From: Candidatus Thorarchaeota archaeon
GTDB lineage: Archaea > Asgardarchaeota > Thorarchaeia > Thorarchaeales > Thorarchaeaceae
Length of the DNA: 12,291 nucleotides
Assembly (NCBI GenBank): GCA_029858305.1
Contig: JAOUFI010000067.1
Location: 1 to 12,291, forward strand
Direction of reading: 5' to 3'
Shown here: positions 1-12,291 of the stretch, in pieces
How positions within the stretch are numbered: position 1 is the first letter of the stretch
Layout: the number at the start of each line of letters is the position of its first letter
Program-made: the position numbers and the translations under genes
Notes under the pieces: generated by a model
Told to the model about the DNA's origin: nothing
The model's database searches: none
The model's input: only the letters and a program-made list of their open reading frames with translations

Positions 1-16
1 CAAAATCAGTTTCCAT
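1..16 (-). CDS. Probable 5' start of the next operon gene (M-E-T-D-F..., runs off the window)
   Basis: The minus strand reads GAGGAGGACTGACAAGTATGGAAACTGATTTTG: an SD-like GAGGAGG at the end of the helicase gene, the TGA stop, then ATG at 16 after a 5-nt gap. This matches the coupling seen at the other junctions. Only 5 codons are visible. Confidence 0.5.
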
Positions 17-21
17 ACTTG

Positions 22-2214
22 TCAGTCCTCCTCAATATGGTTCGTTAATCGTCTCTCTAGTGCCTCACGTAGACCTTGCGAAAGCTCCATGACTTTCGAG
101 AGACCTCCTAAATCTGATAAAACAGAGAAGGCATGGAGGAGCCATCTAGACGTGTCCAGTAATCCATAAACATCACCAATACTCAACTCAAACTGCTTAG
201 CTAGATCCTGGATTGCTATATCAGTGGTGACGAGAAAACTAACCAGATTATCAAATCCTTCATCGAGTGACATTCCTGTTTCAATAGATACAATATGTCT
301 AAGGAGCCACAATAGAGATTTGACATCCTGAGTTGTTGTAAGCATTGCAAGTGTTTCCCTTACAGTGGGTATACGTAGATAGAGCCTGTTCACGGCTCGT
401 CCAAGGCGTGTAGGTTTGATCTTTCCATTTGTATCGCCTTCGACTAAAGCTAAACGTGTTAGGAGACCCAAAGGGCTTGTTTCAGACAATGAAAGAGGAA
501 TGACATAGTCTGCCATATTGCCCAGGTCCTTAGCAGCAGCCATTCCAAGTGTTACTAAGTGATGGCAGAGAATTCCACTCTCGGTAATTGGTAATCCGCA
601 GGAGCACATCGGCCCTTCTACGGTCCCTAATGGTGATAGCCGTGCTGAGAAACGGCAAGTGAATGTTCCCCCATCAAGGCTGGTCACAAGTCCTCCTATC
701 ACGGTTTCGTTTCTCTCTCGAAGTGAAGTCTTTCCAAGCAGGTCTTTACGTGCAGTTTGAACCGTTTCAGGAAGTGCATGTAATTCCAAAACTGTCACTG
801 CTGAGATATCGCCGAGTTGCAACACTCTCATAGGCGCTTTCGAATCGCGAATCGCACAAAACACAAGAAATGATTCACCAAGGACCCCATTTTCGATTTC
901 CTCAACGGATGCCGAAACCATCATATCAAGGGCAACGAGAAGCTGCTCAGCTAAAGCATCGGGATGAGCCAACGAACTATTGATTCGATCATACTTTGCA
1001 GAAAGTGTTTCCTTTCCAGTTGTCTGGTCTCTTAAGATATCAAAGTACCGACGTTTTACTTCATCACTTTCACCAGTACTACCTGTTATAATAATTCCAA
1101 ACCCGATTTTATCATGCGTTGGACGACCAGCTCTGCCCAACATCTGATGAACCGTATTCGCTGAAAGCAGTCTTCTGTGGTCTGCAGGCGATTTTATACT
1201 TGAGAGAATTACTGTTCTGGCTGGAAGATCCATTCCTGCCGCCAATGTTGTTGTGGCGCATATCACACGGACTTTTCCTTCATTGAAGAGATGTTCAATA
1301 AGACGACGCCCCTGAAAACCGAGTCCTGCATGATGATATGCTATACCATTATGTAAGAGAGTTCTTAGGTCTAAAGAAAGTGAAACACTACAATTCTCAA
1401 CTGAATCTAATTCTTGGTCGAGACTTTTCTTTTCTTCAGATGTGAATTGCCTTCCTACATCATCAGCAAGTCGTCTAGCCTGTGCCTCAGCTTCGCGTCT
1501 AGTTCTATGAAAGATTATCGTCTGACCATTCCCTTGTACGGTAGTCATCACAAGCTGTTTTATCGTCAAATTTCTATCCGCGGAGGTAATAACACGATAT
1601 ACGAGGGGAACGGGTCGATCATCAGAAATTACGAGGTGACAGTCTAACCATTCTGCAAGTTCCTCTGGAGCTCCTGTAGTGGCTGATAGTGCGACTATTT
1701 GCAGGTCTTCAATAGTTCGTTTTATTCGAATGATGAAACTCTCAAGACGCGCTCCTCTGCCCAATTCAGAGAGCGTCTGAATTTCATCAATAACAACCGT
1801 GCCAAGCTCTGACAACCAGCTACTCCTACTTCGTAGGAGAGAATCTGCACGCTCATAAGTGGTAACAATTACATCATACTCCGCAAGATCATCACCATTG
1901 TTTTGGAAGTCACCAGTGCTTAGTCCAACTGATATGCCAAGATGTTCATATCGCTCTTGCATCGTTCGAAAGATCTGTACTGCAAGAGCTCGCAGGGGGA
2001 CAAGGAATAAACCCTTCCTGCCGCAAGTCACAGCTCTCAAGACTGCCATCTCGCCAATCAAAGTCTTACCAGACCCTGTTGGGCTCGAAACCATGATACT
2101 CTGTCCCTCTAGGAGACCTCTGTCGATGGCCATGGACTGGACGCCTCGAGGTTTCAATCCTGCTTGGATGAGCAGTTTATTGACTTGAGTTGTGACATCT
2201 ACGACTATGGTCAT
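22..2214 (-). CDS. Hel308/Ski2-like SF2 helicase paralog with inserted SWIM zinc finger (730 aa)
   Basis: Motifs in order: Q-motif (PRGVQ), Walker A SPTGSGKT, PLRALA, TGD, TTYER, motif II DEIQ, ALSAT, RPVPL, HHAGL, ATTTLAAGMDLPAR and QMLGRAGRP. These are followed by CSC-x10-CHH (SWIM) and a Hel308-like 'PTRLGRAVNRLYL' winged-helix/ratchet junction. ATGA overlap with the upstream gene. Confidence 0.92.
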   Translation of the reverse strand: MTIVVDVTTQVNKLLIQAGLKPRGVQSMAIDRGLLEGQSIMVSSPTGSGKTLIGEMAVLRAVTCGRKGLFLVPLRALAVQIFRTMQERYEHLGISVGLSTGDFQNNGDDLAEYDVIVTTYERADSLLRSRSSWLSELGTVVIDEIQTLSELGRGARLESFIIRIKRTIEDLQIVALSATTGAPEELAEWLDCHLVISDDRPVPLVYRVITSADRNLTIKQLVMTTVQGNGQTIIFHRTRREAEAQARRLADDVGRQFTSEEKKSLDQELDSVENCSVSLSLDLRTLLHNGIAYHHAGLGFQGRRLIEHLFNEGKVRVICATTTLAAGMDLPARTVILSSIKSPADHRRLLSANTVHQMLGRAGRPTHDKIGFGIIITGSTGESDEVKRRYFDILRDQTTGKETLSAKYDRINSSLAHPDALAEQLLVALDMMVSASVEEIENGVLGESFLVFCAIRDSKAPMRVLQLGDISAVTVLELHALPETVQTARKDLLGKTSLRERNETVIGGLVTSLDGGTFTCRFSARLSPLGTVEGPMCSCGLPITESGILCHHLVTLGMAAAKDLGNMADYVIPLSLSETSPLGLLTRLALVEGDTNGKIKPTRLGRAVNRLYLRIPTVRETLAMLTTTQDVKSLLWLLRHIVSIETGMSLDEGFDNLVSFLVTTDIAIQDLAKQFELSIGDVYGLLDTSRWLLHAFSVLSDLGGLSKVMELSQGLREALERRLTNHIEED

Positions 2215-4562
2215 ACAATCGCACTCTCCATTCCCTCGGTCTGGCGTAGGGCCATGCTACCTTTCATTGTGATTCTAAAATTGGTATATGATACTCCACT
2301 GTGTACTTCATGTCCACGAAGAATCATACTTGCATGTTCAAGTCTTGCAAGAACTGTTTCCACATCGGGATCATTGTCAGAGCTACTGGACACAATGAAT
2401 CGACGTACTGCCTCTTGTGTGAGTGGTTCATATCTTTCAAGCAGTTTCAGGATCCTTATTGCAAGAGCTGTACTTCCTGCAGATACTCGATCCAATAGCG
2501 ATCCCTCACTCCGGGTCGCCTCACTATCTTCTGAAGATAGAAGTGTTCTTAGCTGGTTGGAGTCCTCCTCTGTTGCACTCTCAGGATTCAGATCCGGAGC
2601 AGGATCAAGTTGAATCGGTTGACATGTTTCTGTACCATCATGCACGAGCAGTGCTGTGTCATCGTTCATAATGTTCAGGAAGGATGATTCTCTTGGAGAG
2701 ATACGAGCCTTTGTATGCATCCCTGTTGTTATCACATTCAACCCCAACAAGTCAGATGCTATCTTGATATCTACTGCCTCGCGAAGTCTTAGAGAAATAC
2801 ATGAGGCAAGAGTGCCAATTGCTCCGGGAGCCATATCGACTGGATGTTCCAAGGATAGGACAACTGGCCCTCGTTTCTTTAAGTTCTCTAGAAGACGTTC
2901 ACTGAAAGAATCATGTTTCATGAAGCGTCGGTTCCTCACTCGCATGTTCTCTGCTCCATCCAGAACAACCACAAGATTAGGGTCCGGTTGAAGTCCAGCT
3001 AGTTTGACACAAATGACATTCCACGCAAAGTGATCGAGGGATGTAGAACCAAGCCGCACTCGTACAACAGTCAGTGCAGATTCTGTGAGTCTTGCGGTGG
3101 GAATAGTCTGTGTACCGTAGAAGGCCTTTGCGGCTGAGCCCTGATGAAGAGACCGTACTGCATCCATACCAGCCTTGGATTTATTCGAGGGTGCCGAATC
3201 TGGGAGTTTCGGACTATCTGGTGCAGAGGAGATTACCTCCTCGAATGCACTACCCAGCTGGACATCCGCCAATGTGGCATTTCCGAGTGTGACGGCACGT
3301 GTTATTGCCAGTTCAAGATCTGCAGCACCCCTAAGGTCCGCTCCAGCAACAGGTTCCAAGGACGAGATAAGAAGTGGAACATAATCACTTCGTGGAATAC
3401 CTTCAGAATCAACAGGGTTCAACACAAGGTCTTTGCCAACTTCCAGATGGACTGCTCCTTCTGACAATCGTGTGTATCCTAATGACATCTTGTTGTTTGT
3501 GAAGACGATAACTCGTTTTCCAGCATGAAGAAGTTCAGTCGTTAGAAGCGCAATCACTCTCATCCTTGATTCACTAGTGCCCCCGCATAGTAGCGTACCA
3601 CTCTCAAGCTCAGAATGAGAGAAACCTACTGGGGGTCCGGTCTGTAGAGTGTCTGGGTTGATTGTAACTCCAAGACGATAATCACCAGGACGCCCCCGGA
3701 TTGGTGCAAGAAACTGACCAGGGATATTACTGCCAACCTCAGAAGCCAATTCCGATCTAAGTTGTACCAACCATTCTGCCAGCTCCGTACCAGCTGCATA
3801 GAACCAATCAGATTGGTTATCCACAGCAAGTTGAGTGACCCTGGAAACGAGAGTCTTTGACTTGATGCGTTTCCATTTTTCCATAGGAATTGATGCCTTT
3901 ACAGCTGAATCAAAAGACTCGATGTCTACTGATTCTTTTGCATGACCTATCGCATTTACATGAGCTAGCCACAGGCCTCCACGCCGAAGGATATAGGCTT
4001 CAACCTCACCCTTTGGTATCGTGTTGAGATATTCCTCTATCATATCTGAGACCCGTTCTTCATCCATAGCACGTTGGATTTTCTCAGGTTTCATGGTAAC
4101 ATTGAAACCAAATCCTGCTGAACCATCTACAGCACGAACAAAGGAGCTGATATCCCCTAGAAGTATGGATTTCGCATTCCCCAAATCCAATCCGATCATT
4201 TGCCGTGTTCCAGTGGGAGTCTTACAATCTAATCCTTCAATTTTATCAGAAGTGATCCATGAGGTATCGGTGCGGTGAGCCTGGCTCCAAGGATTTTTTT
4301 GCAATTCCGCGCGACTTACGCCAGTACCTGGCATCATTACTAGTATGAGAATCATACTTGCCACAATTACTGGCAGAATGGCGTATGTGAGACCGAGGAT
4401 AATACCCATTAAAGAAAGAAAGAGGGGAAATGCAAGAGCGCGTTTCTGCTTCCGATCATCCCACCGAATCTCTGTTGAACTCGTGACAGAGAAACTGGAA
4501 TAGGAAGATTCCTCCAACGGGTCTACTTCAGGCTTTGGCCCAAGAGTCAGTCGCCGTCCCAT
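2211..4562 (-). CDS. Membrane-anchored HerA/VirB4/TraG(CedB)-like P-loop protein with degenerate Walker motifs and C-terminal winged helix (783 aa)
   Basis: Two N-terminal hydrophobic segments (ALAFPLFLSLMGIILGLTYAILPVIVASMILILVMM). HerA/VirB4-type context motifs: GPPVGFSHSELESGTLLCGG, GKRVIVFTN, LVLNPVD, LVVVLDGAEN, CISLRLREAVDIKIASDLLG. The C-terminal helix-helix-helix-wing pattern ends in FRITMKG. Preceded by a GGAGGTG SD. The gene is solid; the family call is by motif recognition only. Confidence 0.7.
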   Translation of the reverse strand: MGRRLTLGPKPEVDPLEESSYSSFSVTSSTEIRWDDRKQKRALAFPLFLSLMGIILGLTYAILPVIVASMILILVMMPGTGVSRAELQKNPWSQAHRTDTSWITSDKIEGLDCKTPTGTRQMIGLDLGNAKSILLGDISSFVRAVDGSAGFGFNVTMKPEKIQRAMDEERVSDMIEEYLNTIPKGEVEAYILRRGGLWLAHVNAIGHAKESVDIESFDSAVKASIPMEKWKRIKSKTLVSRVTQLAVDNQSDWFYAAGTELAEWLVQLRSELASEVGSNIPGQFLAPIRGRPGDYRLGVTINPDTLQTGPPVGFSHSELESGTLLCGGTSESRMRVIALLTTELLHAGKRVIVFTNNKMSLGYTRLSEGAVHLEVGKDLVLNPVDSEGIPRSDYVPLLISSLEPVAGADLRGAADLELAITRAVTLGNATLADVQLGSAFEEVISSAPDSPKLPDSAPSNKSKAGMDAVRSLHQGSAAKAFYGTQTIPTARLTESALTVVRVRLGSTSLDHFAWNVICVKLAGLQPDPNLVVVLDGAENMRVRNRRFMKHDSFSERLLENLKKRGPVVLSLEHPVDMAPGAIGTLASCISLRLREAVDIKIASDLLGLNVITTGMHTKARISPRESSFLNIMNDDTALLVHDGTETCQPIQLDPAPDLNPESATEEDSNQLRTLLSSEDSEATRSEGSLLDRVSAGSTALAIRILKLLERYEPLTQEAVRRFIVSSSSDNDPDVETVLARLEHASMILRGHEVHSGVSYTNFRITMKGSMALRQTEGMESAIV

Positions 4563-4564
4563 AA

Positions 4565-4864
4565 CTACACCTCCCTCAAGAAACTGACCCGATGGGACTG
4601 TCGTTGCAACATTGCAAGTATTTGGCGAATTCTATCAACATATTCTACATCGCCACCCGCAATGATCATTGATCTATCCCCAGTTATGAGGAGCTCTGGC
4701 ATGTTTCCTGAACCCCGTGAAGGCGCACCATGAGCGATTAGTAGTGGGCGGCGTGTAAGAACAGTCCATCGGTAGCCATGCCCAATTGTTAGTGAGGTCA
4801 TGATAGCATCAGGCTTTACACCCACGGGAATTTCGATTCCTGACCGCTCTTCAGATGACTGCAT
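4565..4864 (-). CDS. Small hypothetical protein (99 aa)
   Basis: Fills the gap between two operon genes, has GGAGG upstream of its ATG, overlaps the upstream gene by 14 nt and carries the next gene's SD (GGAGGTG) in its last codons. No family recognised. Confidence 0.8.
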   Translation of the reverse strand: MQSSEERSGIEIPVGVKPDAIMTSLTIGHGYRWTVLTRRPLLIAHGAPSRGSGNMPELLITGDRSMIIAGGDVEYVDRIRQILAMLQRQSHRVSFLREV

Positions 4865-5456
4865 GGGTCTCCAAACCTCCTGTACACGTCGCTATGATGT
4901 CCTGAAAGCTCGCATTCTCTACAGGAAGATGCGGATAGGCTGCTCTCATTGCGCGTTCTAGTATCATTATATCTGTAACAACTTTGCTCGAAAGACTATT
5001 GACTTGACTCAGCCCTTTCCAAAGTTTCAATCCGCTTCTCCTTACAAGATAGCCCACTCTTGTCGTCCGGTTATCTACCGGTCTTATAATGAAGAAGACT
5101 AAATACCCTCCAGGACAATTCGAGAACCGAGTGTACATGGATTGAAGTACCTTGCGGCCTGAATGACTCAGGTCAATACCTATTGGCACACTTGAAAGTA
5201 CTCTCGCGCAGGCAACTTCTACAGTCCACTGTCGAATAATAGAAACTATCCCACGTTCTTCATCCCAAAGGACTCGTGGTTGTGTTTTGGATGATAGGTG
5301 AATGAATAACGCTAGTGAATATAATGCAAGACCTGCGCCAGCAATTGTTATTCCCAGAATGTCATCAGGTACAAGATAGAGCTTTAGCCCGAAAATCGCA
5401 ACGAATATTGAAAGACCAATCCATTTCAAATCATGTAACTCATTGAGTTGTATCAT
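4851..5456 (-). CDS. Hypothetical membrane protein, 2 N-terminal TM helices plus soluble alpha/beta domain (201 aa)
   Basis: Hydrophobic segments WIGLSIFVAIFGLKLYLV and ILGITIAGAGLALYSLALFIHL. ATGA overlap with the XPD-like gene. Confidence 0.82.
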   Translation of the reverse strand: MIQLNELHDLKWIGLSIFVAIFGLKLYLVPDDILGITIAGAGLALYSLALFIHLSSKTQPRVLWDEERGIVSIIRQWTVEVACARVLSSVPIGIDLSHSGRKVLQSMYTRFSNCPGGYLVFFIIRPVDNRTTRVGYLVRRSGLKLWKGLSQVNSLSSKVVTDIMILERAMRAAYPHLPVENASFQDIIATCTGGLETHAVI

Positions 5457-7411
5457 GGCAGTTCCATCCTCATCTTGTTGAATTGGGTGATTGCTTGTTT
5501 CAGTTCATCAGTGTCATTGAAAGGCCAGACATCAGATACAATCTCGTCGCCAAAGACAAGTAGATGCTGGAGAAACCTGTTATCTAGAAGAAGTACCACA
5601 CCAGAATCCGTTGGAGAGCGTCTTAGTCTACCGACTAGTTGTGCAACCTGTCTAATCGAAGGGACAACAGAAGCGTAATAGTATCCTGTTCCATGACCAA
5701 ATTTGGTGTCATACCACTTCTGGAGTGCATCCTGATAACTCGTTGGGGGGCTAAATGGAATCCCAACTCCAATAATGAGGTCGATCATACTCGATCCATC
5801 ACTCACTAGGTCAATTCCTTCAGAAAATTTGCCGCCATACACACAGAACATGGCGCAGGGTCCTCTCGAGATTGACTCTGATACAGTTTCAAGAAGGGCG
5901 TCCCTAGTTTCTACGAGCGCTTCACGAAAGCCAGTATCAATACTGTAGCTCATGACTTCGCTCATCATCTTGTAGGAGGGAAAAGCAATTAGAGCGCTCT
6001 TGTTAGCAGGCATTATGGTGAGAGCTGCTGAGACTCTTGCAGCAATTTCCCGCCATAGATCTGGAGTGCGTTCCTTGTATCGAGTGTTTAGTTTCTTATC
6101 GACAAGTACAAGCCGTGTCCCACGTGGGTATGGACTTGTGAGGTCATCAGATAGAGCGCTTGGAATACCTAGTAGACGAGCATAGTAATCAATAGGCCGT
6201 AGTGTCCCTGACATCAGGACTGCGGATTTGGCTCCTCTTAGTATCGGCGCGGTCAATCCCGCAGAATTGAGGGGTTGAATCATCAGTGTTAAAGTGGATT
6301 TGGACAAGTCATCTGACCAGGAACGATTCACATGTAGCGTTACATGCCAGCCTTCACTGCGTGCCGCTCTATGGGCAGTGTATAGGAACTCAATGAGTCT
6401 GTCAAGAGGGGTCTCTGCAAGACTTGCATTCTCTGGGTCTCCTAGCCCAGGTCGTCCTGCACTGTGTAAGAGATCGAGGTCTTCCTCCTTGACAAATCTT
6501 GGTGCCACATCCCACTTGTCTAGGGCCCTCTCTGTTTTGCTATGCATAGTATCCAGATGGAGCATCATGGTCTCCCAAAGGAAATCAATCGCCTCTCGAA
6601 TCCAAGAGATACCTGTCTCGCGCATGACTACTTGGCTATTCTCTCTCAGCCATCTAAGATCGTCACTGCAAAGAGAAGACGTCTCCGCATCAAGCACGTG
6701 TCCCGAGAGATTATGAGCCTCGTCTATGAGTAGATCAACATCGCTGAGTGGAATGCCCAACGATGCAAGCAGAGCCTCCCGAACTCTAGATTTGAACATG
6801 TAGGAATACGGTCCAATTATCACCATACTCCTTCGTGCGCACCAACGCATTATCTCGTATGGGCAGTAGCCTTCTAGCTCTGCTCTTTCCTCTGCCCTTT
6901 CACGTGTGACAACTCCCGTGTCAAGGAGGTCTTCGATTGTCCTATGGGCATCCTCATGGATAATAGGCTTACCGTCAGTGTTACCACGACTGTAGAAGTT
7001 CCAATAGTGGATGCACTGCCCTGTCTTTATCATACCTGCACAGGCACGCATGAATCCAGTATGACCAAGTGATTCCATTTCATGACGAATTGGACATACA
7101 TGAACACGAGAGACCATAGTCGTAGCTGCCAAATTGGGTACTACACTTCGAAGCACCTCAAGCTCAGTTTCGAAGACCTTCGATTGCGAATGAGTTCGTG
7201 TAAGTGCAAAAAGGTGAGTACTAGGATCAACTTTTCGTGAGGCTAGATATCCAGAGAGTACTGCGATTGTCTTGCCAATTCCACAATCTGCTTGCAAAAG
7301 TCCAACTGTATTAGTAGAGAAAGATTGTGCAGCCAGACTGACCGCTCTCTCCTGATGTAGTCTAGGAGAATATGGAAAATATGCCATGGGATCAGTCGTG
7401 GCAATACTCAC
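5453..7411 (-). CDS. XPD/Rad3 (DinG-superfamily) Fe-S cluster 5'-3' DNA helicase (652 aa)
   Basis: Q-motif FPYSPRLHQ, Walker A ADCGIGKT, TRTHSQ, four Fe-S-type cysteines (VCP, RAC, QCIHY, CPYE), DEAHNL, MSGTLRP, FPSY, GGKFSEGID, GIPF and QLVGRLRRSPTDSGVVLLLDNRF. GTG start preceded by GGAGGAGTGA. Confidence 0.95.
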   Translation of the reverse strand: MSIATTDPMAYFPYSPRLHQERAVSLAAQSFSTNTVGLLQADCGIGKTIAVLSGYLASRKVDPSTHLFALTRTHSQSKVFETELEVLRSVVPNLAATTMVSRVHVCPIRHEMESLGHTGFMRACAGMIKTGQCIHYWNFYSRGNTDGKPIIHEDAHRTIEDLLDTGVVTRERAEERAELEGYCPYEIMRWCARRSMVIIGPYSYMFKSRVREALLASLGIPLSDVDLLIDEAHNLSGHVLDAETSSLCSDDLRWLRENSQVVMRETGISWIREAIDFLWETMMLHLDTMHSKTERALDKWDVAPRFVKEEDLDLLHSAGRPGLGDPENASLAETPLDRLIEFLYTAHRAARSEGWHVTLHVNRSWSDDLSKSTLTLMIQPLNSAGLTAPILRGAKSAVLMSGTLRPIDYYARLLGIPSALSDDLTSPYPRGTRLVLVDKKLNTRYKERTPDLWREIAARVSAALTIMPANKSALIAFPSYKMMSEVMSYSIDTGFREALVETRDALLETVSESISRGPCAMFCVYGGKFSEGIDLVSDGSSMIDLIIGVGIPFSPPTSYQDALQKWYDTKFGHGTGYYYASVVPSIRQVAQLVGRLRRSPTDSGVVLLLDNRFLQHLLVFGDEIVSDVWPFNDTDELKQAITQFNKMRMELP

Positions 7412-7414
7412 GAA

Positions 7415-8035
7415 TCACTCCTCCACTCTCAGACATGACTCGCTCCGATGTATAGTGAATCGTAGTGAGAAATACTTCCGAAGAAGACGTTGAAACCTCC
7501 ACATGAGTTCAGGAGAATCATAGTGTGCCTCTTTGTTCCCCATCTTCTCGACTATCTCAGGACTGAAGCCTTTTTGACGAGCCGCTTTCCAAAACCATGT
7601 TTCAACCTCCCTCATGGTGGAATACAGATGTTCAAGAGAATCCTCAACTGTCGACATTAATAGACGAACTGTCCTCTTGGAGTCCTTAGGCAACTCAGAG
7701 ACCTTCATACTTGTTGGGAGGTACACCGCTATACCTTCAGCACTGTCGAGGTACACCTCTCGTGGGACACCCTTGGACCCACGTAGAGTTTCAAGGAGGG
7801 AAAGTATCCTAGGCAATTGTGGGAGAAATGGTTTGTTCAAGTTAGGGTCTCTCCATGCGACACGAGTAACTACGTATATCTGAGGATCAGGACCATCACA
7901 CCGTTCTAGCACCGTGACTCGATGCGAGGTCTCTCGAAGTAGGAGATTGACTAGGTTTATCATGGAACTCTGAGGAACGCTCGGGGTTGTTTTTGGAATC
8001 CATAGGGGATCTGAGAGGTTATCAGGACTAGACAT
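7415..8035 (-). CDS. Hypothetical protein (206 aa)
   Basis: Operon-embedded ORF with GGGAGG upstream, an 8-nt overlap with the upstream gene and a 3-nt gap to the XPD-like gene. No family recognised. Confidence 0.82.
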   Translation of the reverse strand: MSSPDNLSDPLWIPKTTPSVPQSSMINLVNLLLRETSHRVTVLERCDGPDPQIYVVTRVAWRDPNLNKPFLPQLPRILSLLETLRGSKGVPREVYLDSAEGIAVYLPTSMKVSELPKDSKRTVRLLMSTVEDSLEHLYSTMREVETWFWKAARQKGFSPEIVEKMGNKEAHYDSPELMWRFQRLLRKYFSLRFTIHRSESCLRVEE

Positions 8036-8486
8036 CTGACCATGCCTCCCTCGTGGTCATTATATGCACCCCATCATTCAAAATCAGCCCCTCTGATTCC
8101 AACGTGTCAAGAAACTTCATGGCGCGGCCCAAGTCGATGCCAGCCTCACTACATTCCCGCATTATTTCCTCGATGGATGCAGGCTTGCCTCGCTTGAGAT
8201 CTATCAATGCTTCAATGATATTGTATACTCTCTTCTTGACTCCTAATCCCCGACCAGCGCCTTCTCTCAACTTGGTCTTGGACATTCGGGATTCTAGGGC
8301 GAGGTCTCTCACTAATATCTGAGCCTCTTGCCGGGTCACTGCATATACTGTCCCAGTTTCGTGCAGAACAAGAGCTTGGCATAGACTGCAGCGTGAGGCG
8401 TCTTCCTCGCTCTCTACCTGACTATAGCCTATGTTCTTGCATCGTGAGCAGTGATAGACTCTGAACATGCCTCGGTCTCGGCTCAC
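8028..8486 (-). CDS. Zn-ribbon + winged-helix protein (DUF5817/DUF1922-like; MCM C-terminal-like wH) (152 aa)
   Basis: CSRC...CSLC zinc ribbon. The C-terminal RVYNIIEAL...ASIEEIMRECSEAGIDLGRAMKFLDTLESEGLI resembles the archaeal MCM C-terminal wH. GTGA overlap with the radA stop, with AGGTGA SD. The DUF assignment is from memory of the architecture. Confidence 0.8.
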   Translation of the reverse strand: MSRDRGMFRVYHCSRCKNIGYSQVESEEDASRCSLCQALVLHETGTVYAVTRQEAQILVRDLALESRMSKTKLREGAGRGLGVKKRVYNIIEALIDLKRGKPASIEEIMRECSEAGIDLGRAMKFLDTLESEGLILNDGVHIMTTREAWSDV

Positions 8487-9574
8487 GTATCCTCACCTGC
8501 CGATACTGATTCTGCCTCGAGTACCAGCTCCTCTTCCTCTGAGTCAGAACTACTGTGTTCTACTTCATCCTTTACGTCAATACCTCGTTTCTCGAAGTAT
8601 TCCAACACGTCTGGCTCATGTTCCTTCTTGGTCTTGGAGTCCGTGTAGAGACCACCCCAGCCCACTACTACATCCACATCAAACTCAGGAAGCCCTGCGT
8701 TGTCCTGCAACTCAATCTTGCGGACATCGGCCTTGGTCCTACGAGTGTAGAATCTATAGTCGCTTGCGTGGCTGATTATATGGCCTCCTACGGGTGCGTT
8801 CGGATTGCCGCCATAGCTGGATATTTTCGCCATGACCTGGTTTGTGTATGCAAAGATAGCCTCAGTTGCAGTAGCGGTGCGGCGCATCTGATTGAGGAGG
8901 GCGTTCATGTCTTGTTGACGAATCCGCATTGATTCAAGACCCGTGTACTCAGCTCTGAAGAGACCAGTGAAGCTGTCAATCACAACTAGCTTGTAGTTCT
9001 GCTCAGCACACAATTGGGGAATGCTCTCAAAAATCTCTGTAATCTGACCGGAGAGGACAATCTCAGCACGGCCAATATTTCCTAAGGCAATGTCTGGGTC
9101 TAGACCGAATCTGACTGCATTTGCTCGTATAACCCAAGGCTTGAAGCTAGACTCAGTATCAAGCCAGAGCACCCTGCCCTCAAGACCACCTTTGTCATGT
9201 GGGAGTTGAGCCATCACAGCCAGCTGGGAGACCCATTGCGTCTTTCCTCCTCTGGCAGGTCCAAAAATTTCAACAATGGAGCCGACCTCTATTCCTCCCA
9301 GAAGACATTCATCTATCTTACCAACTCCTGTCTTCAAGCGAGGCTTAGTGGCCATCTCCTGCTCGATCTCGAGTCCTGACCTGAATCCGAACTTCCCAAC
9401 AAGCTGCCGAGCATTCTTCACGATTTTCTCAGTTGTTCCTTCTCCTAATTTTGTTCGTTTGAGTAGTTCAACTGGATTCTGAACTGCTAGTAGTTCTGCT
9501 GTTGTGACATATGCTTCTTTGAGTTTTTTAGCCACAGCTGGGCCAACGCCAGGAACAGCCTCTAGTTCAGTCAT
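8483..9574 (-). CDS. radA: RadA/Rad51-family recombinase paralog with N-terminal HhH domain and acidic tail (363 aa)
   Basis: N-terminal LEAVPGVGPAVAKKL (HhH), LLGGIEVGSIVEIFG, Walker A GPARGGKTQ, QLPHDKGGLEG, DTESSF, Walker B LVVIDS, FRAEY, TNQV and PVGGHIISH. Strong SD GGAGGTGA. Probably a paralog rather than the housekeeping RadA. Confidence 0.93.
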   Translation of the reverse strand: MTELEAVPGVGPAVAKKLKEAYVTTAELLAVQNPVELLKRTKLGEGTTEKIVKNARQLVGKFGFRSGLEIEQEMATKPRLKTGVGKIDECLLGGIEVGSIVEIFGPARGGKTQWVSQLAVMAQLPHDKGGLEGRVLWLDTESSFKPWVIRANAVRFGLDPDIALGNIGRAEIVLSGQITEIFESIPQLCAEQNYKLVVIDSFTGLFRAEYTGLESMRIRQQDMNALLNQMRRTATATEAIFAYTNQVMAKISSYGGNPNAPVGGHIISHASDYRFYTRRTKADVRKIELQDNAGLPEFDVDVVVGWGGLYTDSKTKKEHEPDVLEYFEKRGIDVKDEVEHSSSDSEEEELVLEAESVSAGEDT

Positions 9575-10038
9575 GGGGTCACCTCCAATTCAACCTGTTC
9601 AGCAACTGGTCCTTCTAGGGGTACAAGGCGAACGAAGGCGGGAATGTCATATGGAGGAATAACGATGTCCCCATGAGACCTGAACAAGGTCAGCCCCTTT
9701 AGAAGTCGAGAAACCTCCTCTTGCCTATCAATTGGGACCCTGAAGTAAAGTCCTTCGGGGCACACTTCGCCCACGATGCTCACCCACCCACCGAGCGCAT
9801 CATACGCACTACCAATGAGACCATCTCCGTGGATAGGACTTGTGCCGGGCTCTGCAGGTGTGATTTCGCCAATCATTCGAATCATTTCATAGATATCATT
9901 GACAAAATCTCTCCATAGCCACTCAGGCGTTCGTGAGCCCACAATCTGCAGACCAGCAGCAGCACCTGCAAGCCAGGACGCCTGTGGCAAGTTGAATGCA
10001 TCTCGTGGAACGCTGAAAATAATATCATCAATCATCAA
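9571..10038 (-). CDS. Hypothetical protein (154-155 aa; start TTG 10038 or ATG 10035)
   Basis: SD GAGGAGGT at 10050-10057, 1-nt gap from the upstream stop, ATGA overlap with radA. Confidence 0.82.
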   Translation of the reverse strand: MMIDDIIFSVPRDAFNLPQASWLAGAAAGLQIVGSRTPEWLWRDFVNDIYEMIRMIGEITPAEPGTSPIHGDGLIGSAYDALGGWVSIVGEVCPEGLYFRVPIDRQEEVSRLLKGLTLFRSHGDIVIPPYDIPAFVRLVPLEGPVAEQVELEVTP

Positions 10039-10039
10039 A

Positions 10040-10792
10040 CTAGATCTCTACCTCCTCGCTAACTTGTACACTACTCATGACCTGCGGGAGTGGTCTCAGT
10101 GATGCGAGCCAATCCTTCAGGCCTAGAATCATCGGATCTTTCAACTGACTTACGGTAAGTACCGATGAAAGAAGTGCCTGAGATGCAATCACGATTCGCT
10201 GAAGTCCAATCGCGCGGTCTGAATAGCTCAGGGGGGCGAACCAGGGCATAGTCGTAAAACCAGTTTCACCTGCCAGCATCTCTCTCCAGTCTATATTCCA
10301 GAGACCAACAACTGGATCACGGGCTAAGATTCCAAGGAGTACATCTGTCCATTCGGTCCATCGTTTCATGAAAGTAGTGACAGCTGAAGAAAGTGCCTTC
10401 AGACTCCCTCCTTTCCGTTCTGCCAGACCTTCGAAGACCAAAATGAATCGAGTCACTTCTTCTCTAGATATCGCGCTGAGCACCACGCCATTATTGACAG
10501 ACTGTGCAAGCAGAGCAAGACCCGGCACAAGGCCTGGTATGTCACAAAGCTGATATCGTCCCTTGCGCTCAAAATTGACTCTCTCAAATGGAGCAAGGAT
10601 ATCACTCCTTAGACCAACTATTAGAATGAGATTTGCATCCCTCTCAGGTCCGTCATATCGAAGTTTTGCTGTAATGATACTTCGATCGGTGTTGCTGAAC
10701 ATTACTTGAAGAGCGAGTGTGACATCTACCGTAGAATGTGCCTTCACATCCTTAACCGCAGCGGCTAGTTGTTCGTCAAGTTGCGTGATCAT
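10040..10792 (-). CDS. Hypothetical protein, first gene of the operon (~250 aa, MITQLDEQ...)
   Basis: Long ORF coupled to the downstream gene. ATG 10792 is preferred over GTG 10864 because the 24-codon extension is Cys-rich, atypical and overlaps a palindrome. No family recognised. Confidence 0.8.
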   Translation of the reverse strand: MITQLDEQLAAAVKDVKAHSTVDVTLALQVMFSNTDRSIITAKLRYDGPERDANLILIVGLRSDILAPFERVNFERKGRYQLCDIPGLVPGLALLAQSVNNGVVLSAISREEVTRFILVFEGLAERKGGSLKALSSAVTTFMKRWTEWTDVLLGILARDPVVGLWNIDWREMLAGETGFTTMPWFAPLSYSDRAIGLQRIVIASQALLSSVLTVSQLKDPMILGLKDWLASLRPLPQVMSSVQVSEEVEI

Positions 10793-10802
10793 CTCATGCA
10801 CC

Positions 10803-10823
10803 GTACACGAACAACAAGTGTAC
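10803..10823. promoter_or_regulatory. Candidate operator palindrome GTACAC-N9-GTGTAC
   Basis: Perfect 6-bp inverted repeat with a 9-nt spacer, 10 nt upstream of the probable first start codon of the operon. Confidence 0.4.
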
Positions 10824-11044
10824 AAACATAATTCAACCCTTTCAGAGAGATAGAAGCCCACCACAGATAGCGTGAGAAAGATTTACCAGATTTTAACGCG
10901 CGATGGCTGCTTAATCCCCCATAATAGAGCCCCGTCTCGTACAAAGAGTTACCATGGAGGACTTCTAGGAGGGTAGAGATGACCATTCTGCACGAATTTG
11001 GCTTAGCCTCATCGATATGAAAAGATCATATGAGAAAATGAGAT

Positions 11045-11064
11045 GGCTGCAGTTTCCTGCAGCC
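11045..11064 (-). terminator. Hairpin GGCTGCAG-GAAA-CTGCAGCC followed by pyrimidine/T-rich tracts, likely end of the tfb transcript
   Basis: Perfect 8-bp stem with a GNRA loop on the minus strand, 10 nt after the tfb stop, followed by ATCTCATTTTCTCATATGATCTTTTC. Confidence 0.6.
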
Positions 11065-11074
11065 CAAATTAAAC

Positions 11075-12079
11075 CTATACAGCTATAGCCATTGCTTCTG
11101 GAGCAATGGTCAAGTTTAGTCTTGATACAAGTTCTTTGTACCTATTTCGAATCGTGACTTCGGTAACTCCTGATATTCTTGAGATGTCGCGCTGCGTCAC
11201 TCTGCAATCATTGATTATCGCTGCTACATAGATTGCGGCAGCTGCGAGTCCTCTTGGATCGCGACCCGTTACTAGTCCACGTACTTCCTTTGCCCTCTCT
11301 AGGATATCCATGGTTGTGCACTGAACCTCTGTGGGCAGGTGAAGCTCTGAGATGAATCTTGGGACATACATTGCTGGGCTCGATATAGGCATCCTGAGCT
11401 TTAGCTTTGTCACGAGCATCCTATAGTGTGCTGAGATCTTCTTTTTGTTCTCCCTAGAATGTTCTGCTATCTCTTCAATTGAACGGGGTGATCCCCTGTG
11501 CCTGCAGGCAGCATATACAGCCGCTGCGGCAGTAGCGTCGATACTTCGACTCCGCCAGAGTCTTCCCGCAATGAGTTTGCGATACATGCGCGCTGCATCC
11601 TCTTTGAGGCTTTGTGACATCCCTAACTGTGATGATAAGCGATCAATCTCGGTCATGGCTTGAGCCAAGTTCCTATCGAGCGAGCTGTGTACTCTTGTCC
11701 TTATCTGCCATTTTCGCAGTCGATAAATCTGAGCTCGTTGTTTTGCACTAAATGAGCCACCTTTTCCATCACGGTCTCTCCAATCAATGGTCGTGCTGAG
11801 ACCCTTATCATGCATCGCGTAACTCTCTGGCGCACCAGTTCTTGACCGTGTGTCTCGCTCATCCGAGGTGAATGCACGCCACTCTGGACCTGAATCTATA
11901 CGGTGGTCGCTTAGCACGAGACCGCATTTTGCACAGATCAGTTCACCCTTCTCATTATCCCTGACAACCTCGACTCCCCCGCACTCGGGGCAAGAAACGT
12001 TTTGGGTGCCTATTGTTCCTAATTCCTCTCTTCCTTCCAATGTGTTGCTAGACATTTCTGCACTTGTTCCCTCCAGCAT
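11075..12079 (-). CDS. tfb: Transcription initiation factor IIB (TFB) paralog, full length (alternative start ATG 12055)
   Basis: Zn ribbon CPECG...CAKCG, B-reader DSGPEWRAF, RTGAP...HDKGLSTTI, RLRKWQ, two cyclin repeats and the C-terminal HTH TQRDIS..GVTEVTIRNRYKEL. Confidence 0.97.
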   Translation of the reverse strand: MLEGTSAEMSSNTLEGREELGTIGTQNVSCPECGGVEVVRDNEKGELICAKCGLVLSDHRIDSGPEWRAFTSDERDTRSRTGAPESYAMHDKGLSTTIDWRDRDGKGGSFSAKQRAQIYRLRKWQIRTRVHSSLDRNLAQAMTEIDRLSSQLGMSQSLKEDAARMYRKLIAGRLWRSRSIDATAAAAVYAACRHRGSPRSIEEIAEHSRENKKKISAHYRMLVTKLKLRMPISSPAMYVPRFISELHLPTEVQCTTMDILERAKEVRGLVTGRDPRGLAAAAIYVAAIINDCRVTQRDISRISGVTEVTIRNRYKELVSRLNLTIAPEAMAIAV

Positions 12080-12143: not shown

Positions 12144-12291
12144 TCACGGTGCCATTGTGATATTCAGTTTCTGAACGAGTTCTTTGTAGCGATTCCGGAC
12201 GGTGACCTCTGTCACACCTGCCGCCATGGCGATGTCACGCTGGGTCACACGGTGGTCTGTGAGAATACTTGCAATATAGATGGCAGCTGCT
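12144..12291 (-). CDS. tfb: 3' end of a second TFB paralog (partial; not in the ORF track)
   Basis: Manual translation from 12290 gives [48 protein letters not shown] with TGA at 12144-12146. This is the TFB C-terminal HTH signature. Confidence 0.93.

Follow-up and report, generated by a model that had tools for sequence, protein, structure and literature searches.

Why do Thorarchaeota keep a RadA paralog, two DNA helicases and a set of membrane proteins together in one operon? The question is posed by contig JAOUFI010000067.1 of a Thorarchaeota MAG, the entire length of which (12,291 nt) is hereafter called the window. A sequence-only reading, whose guess of an Asgard source was correct, had proposed that its genes form a Ced-like DNA import machine and had not recognised the combination as a described system; no published description of the operon, which proves to comprise 15 genes, was found either. 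The proposal made below, to which I give about an even chance, is that the operon encodes a machine dedicated to homologous recombination, which is anchored in the membrane and sits on a passive VirB4-like hub protein. The operon thus points to an undescribed, membrane-based handling of DNA in Asgard archaea, the group most closely related to eukaryotes.

Organization of the operon

Ten successive ORFs, g1 to g10, are tightly packed on the minus strand of the window (the strand to which all window coordinates below refer), and their junctions are those originally described: overlaps of 4, 14, 4, 8, 4 and 4 nt, and gaps of 2, 3 and 1 nt. The operon had been put at ten genes or more, and it is indeed larger. 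Contigs C22 and C76 share an exact 76-nt overlap at the window start, and the operon therefore runs past position 1: C22 adds four whole genes and the start of a fifth, giving a total of 15 (g1–g10 and d1–d5). The window itself holds only the first five codons of d1 (1..16, ATG at 14–16), the rest of this gene, whose product has 562 residues, lying at C22:2563–4251. At the other end, the first gene of the operon, g10 (10040..10864), encodes a protein of 250–274 residues depending on whether it starts at the GTG at 10864 or at the ATG at 10792; it has orthologs in 23 loci. The upstream intergenic region, as read from the sequence, spans 10865..11074 and contains a TTAAAAT box at 10890–10896, 29 nt upstream of the g10 GTG. 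This box may be a promoter element, a reading that leans on the usual spacing of archaeal TATA boxes. A terminator-like hairpin (11045–11064) followed by a T-rich run lies after a TFB gene and divides that gene from the operon.

The recombination enzymes and their housekeeping counterparts

The assignment of a RadA paralog, an XPD-type helicase and a Hel308-type helicase to the operon is backed by Pfam and NCBIfam. The first, g8 (8483..9574, 363 aa), is a full-length RadA paralog with an N-terminal HhH domain (HHH_5, 5.8e-7), a Rad51-type core (Pfam Rad51, 8.3e-54), intact Walker A and B motifs (GPARGGKT and VVIDS, both conserved) and an acidic C-terminal tail. It scores just above the cut-off of PRK04301 (260.8 versus 259) but below that of TIGR02236 (234.3 versus 361.15), and shares 38% identity with the housekeeping RadA encoded on contig C74. 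In a tree, a clade of 10 housekeeping RadAs (support 100/99) excludes 12 module-linked RadAs, among them g8. A second clade of Asgard RadA paralogs has been described by Matsuo et al. 2025 (PMC12722695), and g8 resembles its members in being distinct from the housekeeping copy, a likeness of description and not of position in one tree. In the available text of that paper, the clade is assigned to Heimdall-, Njord-, Gerd- and, less robustly, Lokiarchaea; "Thor" is absent from the main text, which gives no gene context.

The XPD/Rad3-type helicase paralog g5 (5453..7411, 652 aa; Pfam DEAD_2 and Helicase_C_2) retains four Fe-S cysteines, Walker A and the DEAH box in at least 90% of 27 sequences. 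It stays under the XPD subfamily threshold (TIGR00604, 162.9 bits versus 246.95) and is 27% identical to the other XPD of this genome, on contig C50. The Hel308-like SF2 helicase paralog g1 (22..2214, 730 aa) matches Pfam DEAD (4.5e-31) and Helicase_C, reaches 19.4 against a cut-off of 27 with Helicase_dom4_arc, and falls below the Hel308 equivalog level of NF040935 (281.9 bits versus 1200, over residues 6–391 only), a full-length model that spans the helicase core, winged helix, ratchet and domain 5. At least 90% of its orthologs share motifs I, II and VI and a CxC...CxH insert at residue 537, which resembles the CxCxnCxH signature of SWIM zinc fingers, although the Pfam SWIM model gives no match in g1 at E ≤ 0.01. 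This SWIM-like motif is found in 13 of 13 module-linked helicases, versus none of three housekeeping Hel308 proteins. Separate housekeeping Hel308 copies in the related genomes G001, G049 and G042 score 596–622 bits over positions 3–697, compared with 262–295 bits for the operon copy. Separate housekeeping copies, on which the earlier interpretation leaned, are thus present in this genome for radA and xpd, and in relatives for hel308.

Three further enzymes or enzyme relatives are encoded on C22. Both d4 and d2 are paralogs of the RadA core (hhalign, 100% and 97.5%, respectively); d2 is a RecA-fold ATPase whose Walker A is intact, while d4 keeps the RecA fold and has lost that motif. The FEN/XPG-like nuclease d5 ends here at the contig edge after 80 codons, but its G001 ortholog scores 63.4 bits with XPG_I (cut-off 24.9), and 21 orthologs have the conserved D, FDG, SEAE, SND.D and GCDF blocks in common. 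Judged by their sequences, then, the operon enzymes keep their catalytic motifs, these being intact in g8, g5, g1, d2 and d5.

Conservation and selection in Thorarchaeia

Gene order, whose conservation had been singled out for checking, is kept: of 28 other Thorarchaeia genomes, 18 have the 15 genes in identical order, and the remaining 10 show no rearrangement. The g2 gene was detected in 55 of 87 Thorarchaeia genomes, in 20 of the 24 high-quality ones and in 16 of 17 genera, so nearly all Thorarchaeota keep the operon. The locus is single-copy, and its place on the chromosome is conserved: among the loci of 27 other genomes, 13 have a GH3-family gene on the upstream side and 18 a 681-aa gene on the downstream side, and a giant Ig-like/A2M-like surface protein is a conserved neighbour downstream. 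The conserved flanking genes indicate that the operon is a vertically inherited chromosomal locus and not an island. The genes g8–g10 are missing from one genome, the single-contig G049, whose only RadA is of the housekeeping type; this genome may be able to dispense with the RadA paralog, or else its assembly is faulty.

Between the window and its G001 orthologs, pN is 0.06–0.20 and pS 0.68–0.81 for all ten genes. Since pN lies far below pS throughout, all ten are real genes, and by this measure g1–g10 are under purifying selection, including those of no known family (g3, pN 0.18 versus pS 0.75; g6 and g10, dN/dS 0.07 and 0.065). The operon proteins are nonetheless only 60–91% identical, as compared with 83–90% for housekeeping RadA, and are therefore diverging much faster. 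Fast divergence is also typical of conflict systems.

Could the operon be a defence system against mobile elements, one that recognises foreign DNA at the membrane and takes it apart, like the helicase-nuclease system Hachiman or the HerA-based systems SIR2-HerA and DUF4297-HerA? The rapid divergence would fit, as would the matches of g1 to PADLOC HamB models (E 5e-39) and of g5 to type IV CRISPR-associated DinG (E 9.2e-72), and the best PDB matches of the g2 profile are HerA chains of defence complexes. The PADLOC matches, however, cover the generic helicase core only: no complete marker set of any PADLOC defence system was found in the operon, which has neither HamA nor another effector, and its proteins of unknown family gave no match. 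Furthermore, a single-copy locus that is near-universal in the class, with a fixed position and conserved flanks, is unlike the patchy distribution of defence islands, the presence of a full recombinase with mediators argues in the same direction, and no relative was found in viral contigs, albeit in a weak test made with a single protein as query. A defence role is therefore improbable.

A VirB4-like protein devoid of Walker A

The structure of g2 (2211..4562, 783 aa) was examined as an AF2 model (pLDDT 80). Its best Foldseek match is the TrwK/VirB4 chain 8rtd_O (E 4.4e-12), and VIA superposes its C-terminal ATPase domain on that of VirB4 (4ag5_A) with a Z of 28.1 and an rmsd of 2.9 Å over 327 aligned residues; the protein also aligns to full-length TrwK across 490 residues, and its profile matches HerA and PadR/MarR chains. 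The HerA/VirB4 fold first attributed to this protein from its sequence is thus upheld by the model. The predicted domain order is an N-terminal membrane hairpin, a RecA-fold VirB4-like domain and a C-terminal PadR/MarR-like winged helix. Compared with VirB4, TrwK and TrbE (PDB 4ag5, 7o43 and 8rtd), g2 has in common the fold of the C-terminal ATPase domain, and its hairpin is positioned like VirB3, but the winged helix is an addition and the ATP motifs differ. GK[ST] is absent throughout the alignment of 32 relatives, where GG(T/S)xxxR occupies the P-loop position, and the Walker B aspartate is not conserved in the family and is missing from several of the 32 rows. This motif loss suggests that g2 is ATP-dead. 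A nearly invariant arginine, R333, stands at the place of the Walker lysine, and g2 may bind some nucleotide.

FtsK likewise has a membrane anchor, a RecA-fold ring and a C-terminal winged helix, in that order. By analogy, the operon could encode a membrane-tethered device for replication restart or chromosome resolution at division, in which the g2 winged helix would read chromosomal sites while dimers or stalled forks close to the membrane would be resolved by the helicases, recombinase and nuclease. FtsK motor domains are indeed among the structural matches of g2, and Hel308- and XPD-family helicases act at forks according to the available part of PMC13623763. These matches are, however, far weaker than those to VirB4 (Z 14–15 versus 28), the g2 ring lacks the ATP motif, and there is no Xer-type recombinase or division gene in or beside the operon, which makes such a device very improbable.

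Other membrane proteins and proteins of no known family

The window was correctly said to encode two proteins with paired hydrophobic helices, g2 and g4. The link to the membrane is stronger than was then supposed, for four operon proteins (g2, g4, d1 and d3) are membrane proteins as called by a simple hydropathy scan and one AF2 model rather than a dedicated predictor; their hydrophobic segments are kept in 28/28, 28/28, 24/24 and 24/24 orthologs, respectively. In g4 (4851..5456, 201 aa), a helix pair (Kyte-Doolittle segments 12–30 and 33–51, at least one such segment being present in 28 of 28 orthologs) precedes a conserved soluble domain. A central membrane hairpin characterizes d1, which follows the Hel308-like g1 in relatives too and has no recognisable fold, and d3 has about four hydrophobic helices.

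Eight of the 15 operon proteins belong to no recognisable family, and in the window Pfam and NCBIfam gave no match for the seven genes other than g1, g5 and g8. The basic protein g3 (4565..4864, 99 aa) has no PADLOC match either, and its position is conserved across Thorarchaeia; none of the g3 and g4 members scanned passed a Pfam cut-off. Another basic protein, g6 (7415..8035, 206 aa), had no match for any of the 23 members scanned and is detectable as far as the sister family. The acidic g9 (9571..10038, 155 aa, pI 4.4) carries the conserved motifs WLAGAxAG and LGGYVS, and the g10 profile matched nothing in the PDB. As for g7 (8028..8486, 152 aa), previously described as a zinc-ribbon and winged-helix protein, the CxxC...CxxC ribbon stands, its four cysteines being conserved in at least 85% of 25 orthologs, while the winged helix is a possibility to which weak Pfam hits point (MCM8 WHD, 0.0098; HTH_20, 0.0052; as for Zn_Ribbon_TF, E 4.5e-4, each in one of 21 members).

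Do these proteins form a conduit? DNA import or cell-to-cell exchange coupled to recombination would make g2, g4, d1 and d3 the inner-membrane part of a domesticated type IV secretion system (T4SS) like Ced or Ted, in which the two helicases replace the VirB4 motor and reel in DNA that the RadA paralog integrates directly. The four membrane proteins are consistent with this, as is the structural similarity of g2, which is highest to VirB4 proteins of conjugation machines, among them TrwK at full length; its hairpin occupies the place of the VirB3 hairpin in T4SS, and VirB3-VirB4 fusions exist. The giant surface protein conserved downstream is a further point in favour. Ced (Sulfolobales) and Ted (Thermoproteales) are DNA-import systems derived from T4SS and, as far as the available text of PMC9905601 goes, Ted loci adjoin the recombination genes HerA and Rad50, while Ced and Ted are defined as including a polytopic VirB6-like protein (CedA/TedA) and a pilin (CedA1/TedC). 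Like them, the operon combines an archaeal VirB4-like protein with small two-helix membrane proteins.

Against this stand several differences. Transport is attributed to CedB and TedB as the driving ATPases, whereas g2 and its relatives, 32 of 32 in the alignment, lack Walker A. A RadA, XPD, Hel308 or XPG-like enzyme, each of which the operon has, is encoded by neither Ced nor Ted. No polytopic protein with 6–7 helices of the CedA/TedA or VirB6 type appeared among the operon proteins in the hydropathy scan; d3 falls short with its four or so, its profile matches no VirB6 chain, and the d3, d1 and g10 profiles match no T4SS chain at all. Neither was a pilin-like protein recognised in Pfam scans, although the channel and pilin families of Ced and Ted are undetectable by plain sequence search, and no VirB8 or VirB10 partner was recognised. 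The hydrophobic segments, moreover, are all paired hairpins, and no sizeable extracellular domain accompanies them. Among the genes beyond position 1, the nuclease (d5) and an ATPase with Walker A (d2) are present, but neither channel, pilin nor active motor ATPase was recognised. The damage-induced expression of Ced in Sulfolobales depends on TFB3, an analogy that the TFB gene of the window had suggested; a TFB gene is beside the operon in 0 of 28 other Thorarchaeia loci, many of which stop short of the upstream flank. Nothing tested backs the step to a Ced-like import machine; import accounts for part of the data and is a live but less likely alternative.

A recombination machine at the membrane

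The reading I favour, recombination on a membrane-anchored hub, supposes a second homologous-recombination toolkit arranged at the cytoplasmic face of the membrane. In it, g2 would be a passive ring or platform that grips DNA via its winged helix and docks the SWIM-Hel308 helicase, whose gene constantly accompanies that of g2 in Asgard. The two helicases, from families of opposite polarity, would open or reel in DNA, the small RecA-fold proteins d2 and d4 would act like Rad51 paralogs in loading the RadA paralog, and the flap nuclease would trim the joint. Acting on DNA ends or forks retained at the membrane seems a likelier task for the complex than constituting a trans-membrane conduit itself.

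Parts of the operon form a core module that is encountered again in 11 other Asgard families. It is composed of the Walker-A-less VirB4-like protein, fused or split and in both forms retaining its N-terminal hydrophobic anchor, the SWIM-Hel308, a small RecA-fold ATPase and the XPG-like nuclease; outside Thorarchaeia, the RadA paralog is part of it only sometimes. Near the g2-like gene, in 12 loci from these families, a Hel308-like gene was found seven times, a small RecA-fold ATPase five times, an XPG-like gene four times and a full RadA twice.

Three systems offer partial parallels. The archaeal HerA-NurA-Mre11-Rad50 end-resection operon also groups a HerA-superfamily ring with a nuclease and recombination functions, but the Asgard operon has SF2 helicases and RecA-fold partners instead of Mre11, Rad50 and NurA, and its ring is membrane-anchored and devoid of ATP motifs. 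In bacterial natural transformation (ComEC, ComFA, DprA, RecA, RadA/Sms), a membrane complex and a helicase-type motor on its cytoplasmic side hand DNA over directly to the recombinase with a mediator; the concept is alike, but the RecA-fold proteins are the only homologous component in common, and the genes are scattered as opposed to gathered in one operon. Finally, metazoan HELQ and BCDX2, as described in the available part of PMC13623763, associate a Hel308-family helicase with Rad51 paralogs, a partnership that here takes the form of operon linkage only and includes one paralog, d4, lacking Walker A; the Asgard helicase differs in its SWIM-like insert.

Extent of the operon

The genome to which the window belongs (G000) is split into 205 contigs totalling 3.04 Mb, and the 12,291 nt of the window make up one entire contig, C76. 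Ten minus-strand ORFs, from g10 (first in the operon) to g1 (at the window start), span positions 10864 (or 10792) down to 22. Successive ORFs overlap by 4–14 nt or are separated by 1–3 nt; the tight run of at least ten genes noticed in the sequence-only reading therefore stands, and five genes more were found on another contig. When the ten genes were compared with their orthologs in G001, another Thorarchaeia genome, pN values were 0.06–0.20 and pS values 0.68–0.81. Since pN is well under pS in every case, the unknown ORFs of the window are real genes. Pfam and NCBIfam identify three of the minus-strand products: a full-length RadA/Rad51 with an HhH domain (g8), an XPD/Rad3-type helicase (g5) and a Hel308-like helicase (g1). 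The other seven have no match in Pfam, NCBIfam or PADLOC.

The next gene after g1 begins 5 nt past the Hel308 stop (ATG at 14–16), and the first 76 nt of the window are identical to the last 76 nt of C22, a 4,311-nt contig of the same genome. C22 carries d1 (562 aa, no Pfam match), d2 (237–247 aa, Pfam AAA_25/KaiC), d3 (319–337 aa, no Pfam match), d4 (238–245 aa, Pfam Rad51) and the first 80 codons of d5 (Pfam XPG_I). Equivalents of d1–d5 lie head to tail behind Hel308 in G001, where a convergent gene closes the cluster. The sequence-only reading had proposed a look beyond position 1 for, among other things, a nuclease, a channel or pilins: a putative nuclease is encoded there by d5, and neither a channel nor a pilin was recognised among these genes.

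Upstream of the operon lie a TFB gene (11075–12079) and the tail of a second one (12147–12290). These are tandem TFIIB paralogs, the second of which runs off the contig and shows 71% identity with the first across its own last 48 residues; at least three further full TFB genes are present in the genome (on C44, C3 and C133). A GC-rich hairpin with a perfect 8-bp stem (GGCTGCAG gaaa CTGCAGCC, minus strand; 11045–11064), followed by a T-rich run, lies 11 nt past the TFB stop and separates the TFB genes from the operon. Judged by its sequence, this element looks like an intrinsic terminator of the bacterial type. TFB3-like control of the operon was considered and rejected, because the terminator-like hairpin stands between the TFB gene and the operon and because a TFB gene was found beside none of the 28 other Thorarchaeia loci, many of which end before the upstream flank. 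A TFB gene adjoins the module in one distant Asgard genome (L058:9157–10062), where it may be a chance neighbour.

Conservation of the locus in Thorarchaeia

The gene for g2, the 783-aa hub protein, is present in 55 of 87 Thorarchaeia genomes, including 20 of the 24 of high quality, and in 16 of 17 genera. The locus was compared in 28 other Thorarchaeia genomes. All 15 genes are found in identical order in 18 loci; contig ends truncate five, and in four, one of which is also cut by a contig end, a single gene (g9 or g10) was undetected even with family HMMs. HMMs recover 11 of the 15 operon genes in the sister family (G025). In the single-contig genome G049 (loci L025 and L046), g8–g10 are absent and g7 is shortened to 111 aa; the only RadA found there is of the housekeeping type, 38% identical to g8, which points either to loss of the RadA paralog or to an assembly fault. 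No altered gene order was seen among the 28 loci, and the conservation of gene order on which the sequence-only reading depended is thus borne out, the loci that are not complete being free of rearrangement.

The flanks are also shared. Of 27 loci from other genomes, 13 have a GH3-family gene on the upstream side and 18 a convergent gene of 681 aa on the downstream side, behind which a HEAT-repeat protein and a giant surface protein of Ig-like/A2M-like type are often encoded; in G000 the conserved flank genes sit on small separate contigs (C173 and C189 for the surface protein). Since gene order never changes and the flanks are common to relatives, the Thorarchaeia operon is a stable chromosomal locus and not a mobile island. 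The downstream surface protein of G001 (L019:9556–17847) comprises 2,763 aa, with Ig-like, filamin, MG2 and prenyltransferase-type α/α-toroid domains.

Across Thorarchaeia, housekeeping RadA is 83–90% identical, and for the operon RadA the identities lie between 91% and 60%. Such fast divergence of the operon proteins is what could be expected of a defence system directed against mobile genetic elements; however, the operon is near-universal, single-copy and fixed in position, and no known effector was found in it, which makes a defensive function very unlikely. Three genomes placed in the same genus as the window, G006 (locus L014), G005 (locus L015) and G067, have operon proteins as diverged as those of other genera. 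Relative to the window, the three genomes show 39–42% identity for g2, about 60% for g8 and 86–87% for housekeeping RadA. This divergence could reflect a deep split within the genus or exchange of the operon, housekeeping RadA being too conserved for its comparison to decide on horizontal replacement within the genus.

Housekeeping counterparts

The operon enzymes exist alongside separate housekeeping copies, for which the sequence-only reading had proposed a check. G000 has a second RadA on C74 (38% identical to g8) and a second XPD on C50 (27% identical to the operon XPD). Full Hel308 was found in G001, G049 and G042, where it scores 596–622 bits on NF040935 over nearly the whole model, as against 262–295 bits, over the helicase core only, for the operon copy; in G000 itself, housekeeping Hel308 is seen only as contig-end fragments. 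Another Ski2-like helicase of G000 (C200:14553–15689; 830 aa) resembles g1 and has a Cys-rich N-terminal extension. It is not a Hel308; it fits the ASH-Ski2 group, which PMC10946056 describes for Asgard archaea.

A VirB4-fold hub lacking the canonical P-loop

A search of 1.84 billion representative proteins with g2 returned only 61 matches at E ≤ 0.001. A profile built from 32 full-length or near-full-length relatives matched, in the stretch from Walker B to the sensor, PDB chains of HerA and DUF87 (best E, 2.6e-6) and, at the C-terminus, PadR/MarR winged helices; distant members have Pfam winged-helix matches at that place. The AF2 model (pLDDT 80.4) was matched by Foldseek to TrwK/VirB4 of the R388 T4SS (E 4.4e-12, 665 alignment columns). 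VIA-align gave Z 28.1 over 327 residues for Thermoanaerobacter VirB4 (4ag5_A), 24.9 for the C-domain of DndH, 24.6 for HerA, 21.9 for TrwB, 19.3 for full-length TrwK (490 residues across model positions 87–673) and 14–15 for FtsK. The HerA/VirB4 fold first proposed for this 783-aa protein is therefore confirmed. The N-terminal helices of the model (44–59 and 63–89) overlap a hydrophobic segment, and I conclude that g2 is a membrane-anchored VirB4-fold protein with a winged-helix tail. Architectural resemblance might suggest that the operon acts like FtsK in resolving forks or chromosomes, which I consider most improbable, as nothing further points to it.

The P-loop of g2 reads GG(T/S)xxxR or a variant of it in all 32 aligned sequences; GK[ST] occurs at this position in none of the 32, nor is the Walker B Asp conserved. 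With such motifs, g2 is most likely unable to hydrolyse ATP. This bears on the membrane-linked DNA import machine advocated in the sequence-only reading. The hub does descend from a DNA-transfer motor, archaeal domestication of T4SS parts is shown by Ced and Ted, the latter with recombination genes in its loci (PMC9905601), and the giant surface protein is a conserved neighbour, but the motor motif is lost and no channel or pilin was recognised. Import is thus a rather unlikely function, though a live rival to the reading preferred below.

The other operon proteins and a model for their function

Hydropathy indicates two segments in g4 (kept in 28 of 28 orthologs), two central segments in d1 (24 of 24) and about four N-terminal segments in d3 (24 of 24); together with g2, this brings the membrane proteins of the operon to four. 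Since all the hydrophobic bundles are even-numbered, the soluble domains of the operon membrane proteins are probably all cytoplasmic. In the AF2 model of d1 (pLDDT 76), an α/β domain at the N-terminus is followed by a helical hairpin of great length and by a helical bundle, and the acidic tail is disordered. The model drew no Foldseek match at E ≤ 0.001, and VIA-wide returned generic helical-hairpin matches only (Z ≤ 10.5, under the meaningful level for helical proteins). Profiles of d1, d3, g10 and g9 gave nothing better than E 0.03 against the PDB, d1 and d3 had no usable match in the ESM Atlas, and none of 103 members of g7, g6, g9, g4 and g3 scored above the curated cut-off in a Pfam scan.

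In the acidic, 155-aa g9 (9571–10038), WLAGAxAG and LGGYVSxxG stand out as conserved Gly-rich motifs, both without acidic residues; since, in addition, its profile found no PDB relative, a LAGLIDADG-like identity gained no support at the level of sequence. Kinship of g4 with the N-terminal module of g2, considered because both HMMs cross-match the split N-parts of distant g2 relatives, was discarded at an hhalign probability of 2.4%. All-against-all hhalign of the operon proteins relates only g8 to d4, g8 to d2 and d2 to d4. The RadA paralog g8 retains HhH and Walker A and B and has an added, conserved C-terminal extension; d2 retains GxxxxGKT and Walker B, and d4 shares its core with RadA (hhalign 100% to g8) but lacks Walker A. 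The four Fe-S cysteines and DEAH are retained in g5, motifs I, II and VI in g1, which also carries a SWIM-like CxC...CxH motif, and the acidic blocks of FEN/XPG nucleases in d5.

The evidence supports the operon being one unit under selection, in which a complete set of strand-exchange tools is linked to a platform at the membrane. The reading I prefer, and to which I give an even chance, is that of a membrane-organised recombination machine in which a passive g2 hub is associated with the RadA paralog, helicases, mediators and nuclease. From what is known of these families and from gene linkage, g2 would sit at the inner membrane face as a ring or dock without activity of its own, holding DNA via its winged helix and holding SWIM-Hel308, its constant partner across Asgard archaea. 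XPD and Hel308 would work on opposite strands, d2 and d4 would serve the dedicated RadA as Rad51-paralog-like mediators, and the FEN/XPG-like enzyme would trim flaps.

Relation to known systems

A full-text search covering the main text of open papers turned up neither this operon nor a dead VirB4-like hub as something described from Asgard archaea. Among known systems, Ced and Ted, both derived from T4SS, come closest; the Thorarchaeia operon differs from them in that its motor is silenced, that no channel or pilin was recognised in it, and that recombinase, mediators, helicases and nuclease are built in. Its recognised parts come from known families, and there is a substantial chance that the whole is something more distinct.

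Asgard archaea are the nearest known relatives of eukaryotes, and to my knowledge their DNA exchange and recombination are essentially uncharted. Here a whole class retains a second recombinase that comes with mediators of its own, a pair of helicases and a predicted flap nuclease, all tied to a platform at the membrane that stems from a DNA-transfer motor, and the core of this set is found in many Asgard families. Were its role established, it would become testable how control of recombination by Rad51 paralogs and HELQ-type helicases arose, whether there is a dedicated Asgard DNA-exchange pathway and how a translocase ring comes to be re-used as a passive scaffold. The module also offers structural work eight conserved proteins without known family.

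The module in other Asgard archaea

Matches to the g2 profile at E ≤ 1e-5 were obtained in 282 of 400 Asgard genomes (68 of the 90 of high quality), the weakest of which may be HerA-like proteins of the common kind; many Asgard families have strong ones (E < 1e-40). Twelve loci from 11 other families were compared. According to HMMs, the g2 relative is split in L047, L048, L052, L056 and L057 into an N-part of 251–357 aa and a C-part of about 480–535 aa; elsewhere it is fused (750–970 aa) or lies within a protein of about 1,260–1,420 aa, and the N-terminal hydrophobic segments are kept in all these forms. Hub proteins of about 1,260–1,280 aa are encoded by genomes of f9, a large Asgard family that is presumably Lokiarchaeia. 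In the spans fetched, the g2-like gene has as neighbours a Hel308-like gene in seven of the 12 loci, a gene for a small RecA-fold ATPase in five, an XPG-like gene in four and full-length RadA in two; in two more genomes, a low-identity RadA lies 9–20 kb off on the same contig. An XPD-like gene is absent from the same 12 spans, which suggests that XPD joined the module in Thorarchaeia.

At the equivalent site, CxC...CxH is present in 13 of 13 module-linked helicases examined and in none of three housekeeping Hel308 proteins, and the SWIM-like motif can serve as a hallmark of the module. In a RadA tree, the ten housekeeping sequences group together with 100/99 support, to the exclusion of all 12 module-linked sequences; the root of the tree being unknown, this does not establish monophyly of the module-linked RadAs. 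Two RadA clades in some Asgard lineages are described, without their gene context, in the accessible part of Matsuo et al. 2025 (PMC12722695).

A more far-reaching reading, which I deem unlikely, sees in the module an ancient device by which Asgard cells would exchange chromosomal DNA, a T4SS-derived membrane complex with a silenced VirB4 motor that gave rise to the HELQ–RAD51-paralog partnership. SWIM-Hel308, together with XPD in Thorarchaeia, would have replaced the silenced motor, and incoming DNA would be passed straight to the RadA paralog and the Rad51-paralog-like mediators of the module. If this were true, the sister lineage of eukaryotes would possess a dedicated ‘mating-and-recombination’ machine, and the module would be the evolutionary source of that partnership.

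A single-protein query of viral contigs, the reach of which extends to close relatives only, gave no related locus. Two of the loci from other families include additional large proteins: in L047 (5309–7975; genome G210), an 888-aa peptidase M28 protein is encoded within the module, with the RadA paralog on one side and the split hub genes on the other, and in L052 (15283–18528), from another Asgard family, a gene for a 1,081-aa toroid-domain protein immediately precedes the module and shares its strand.
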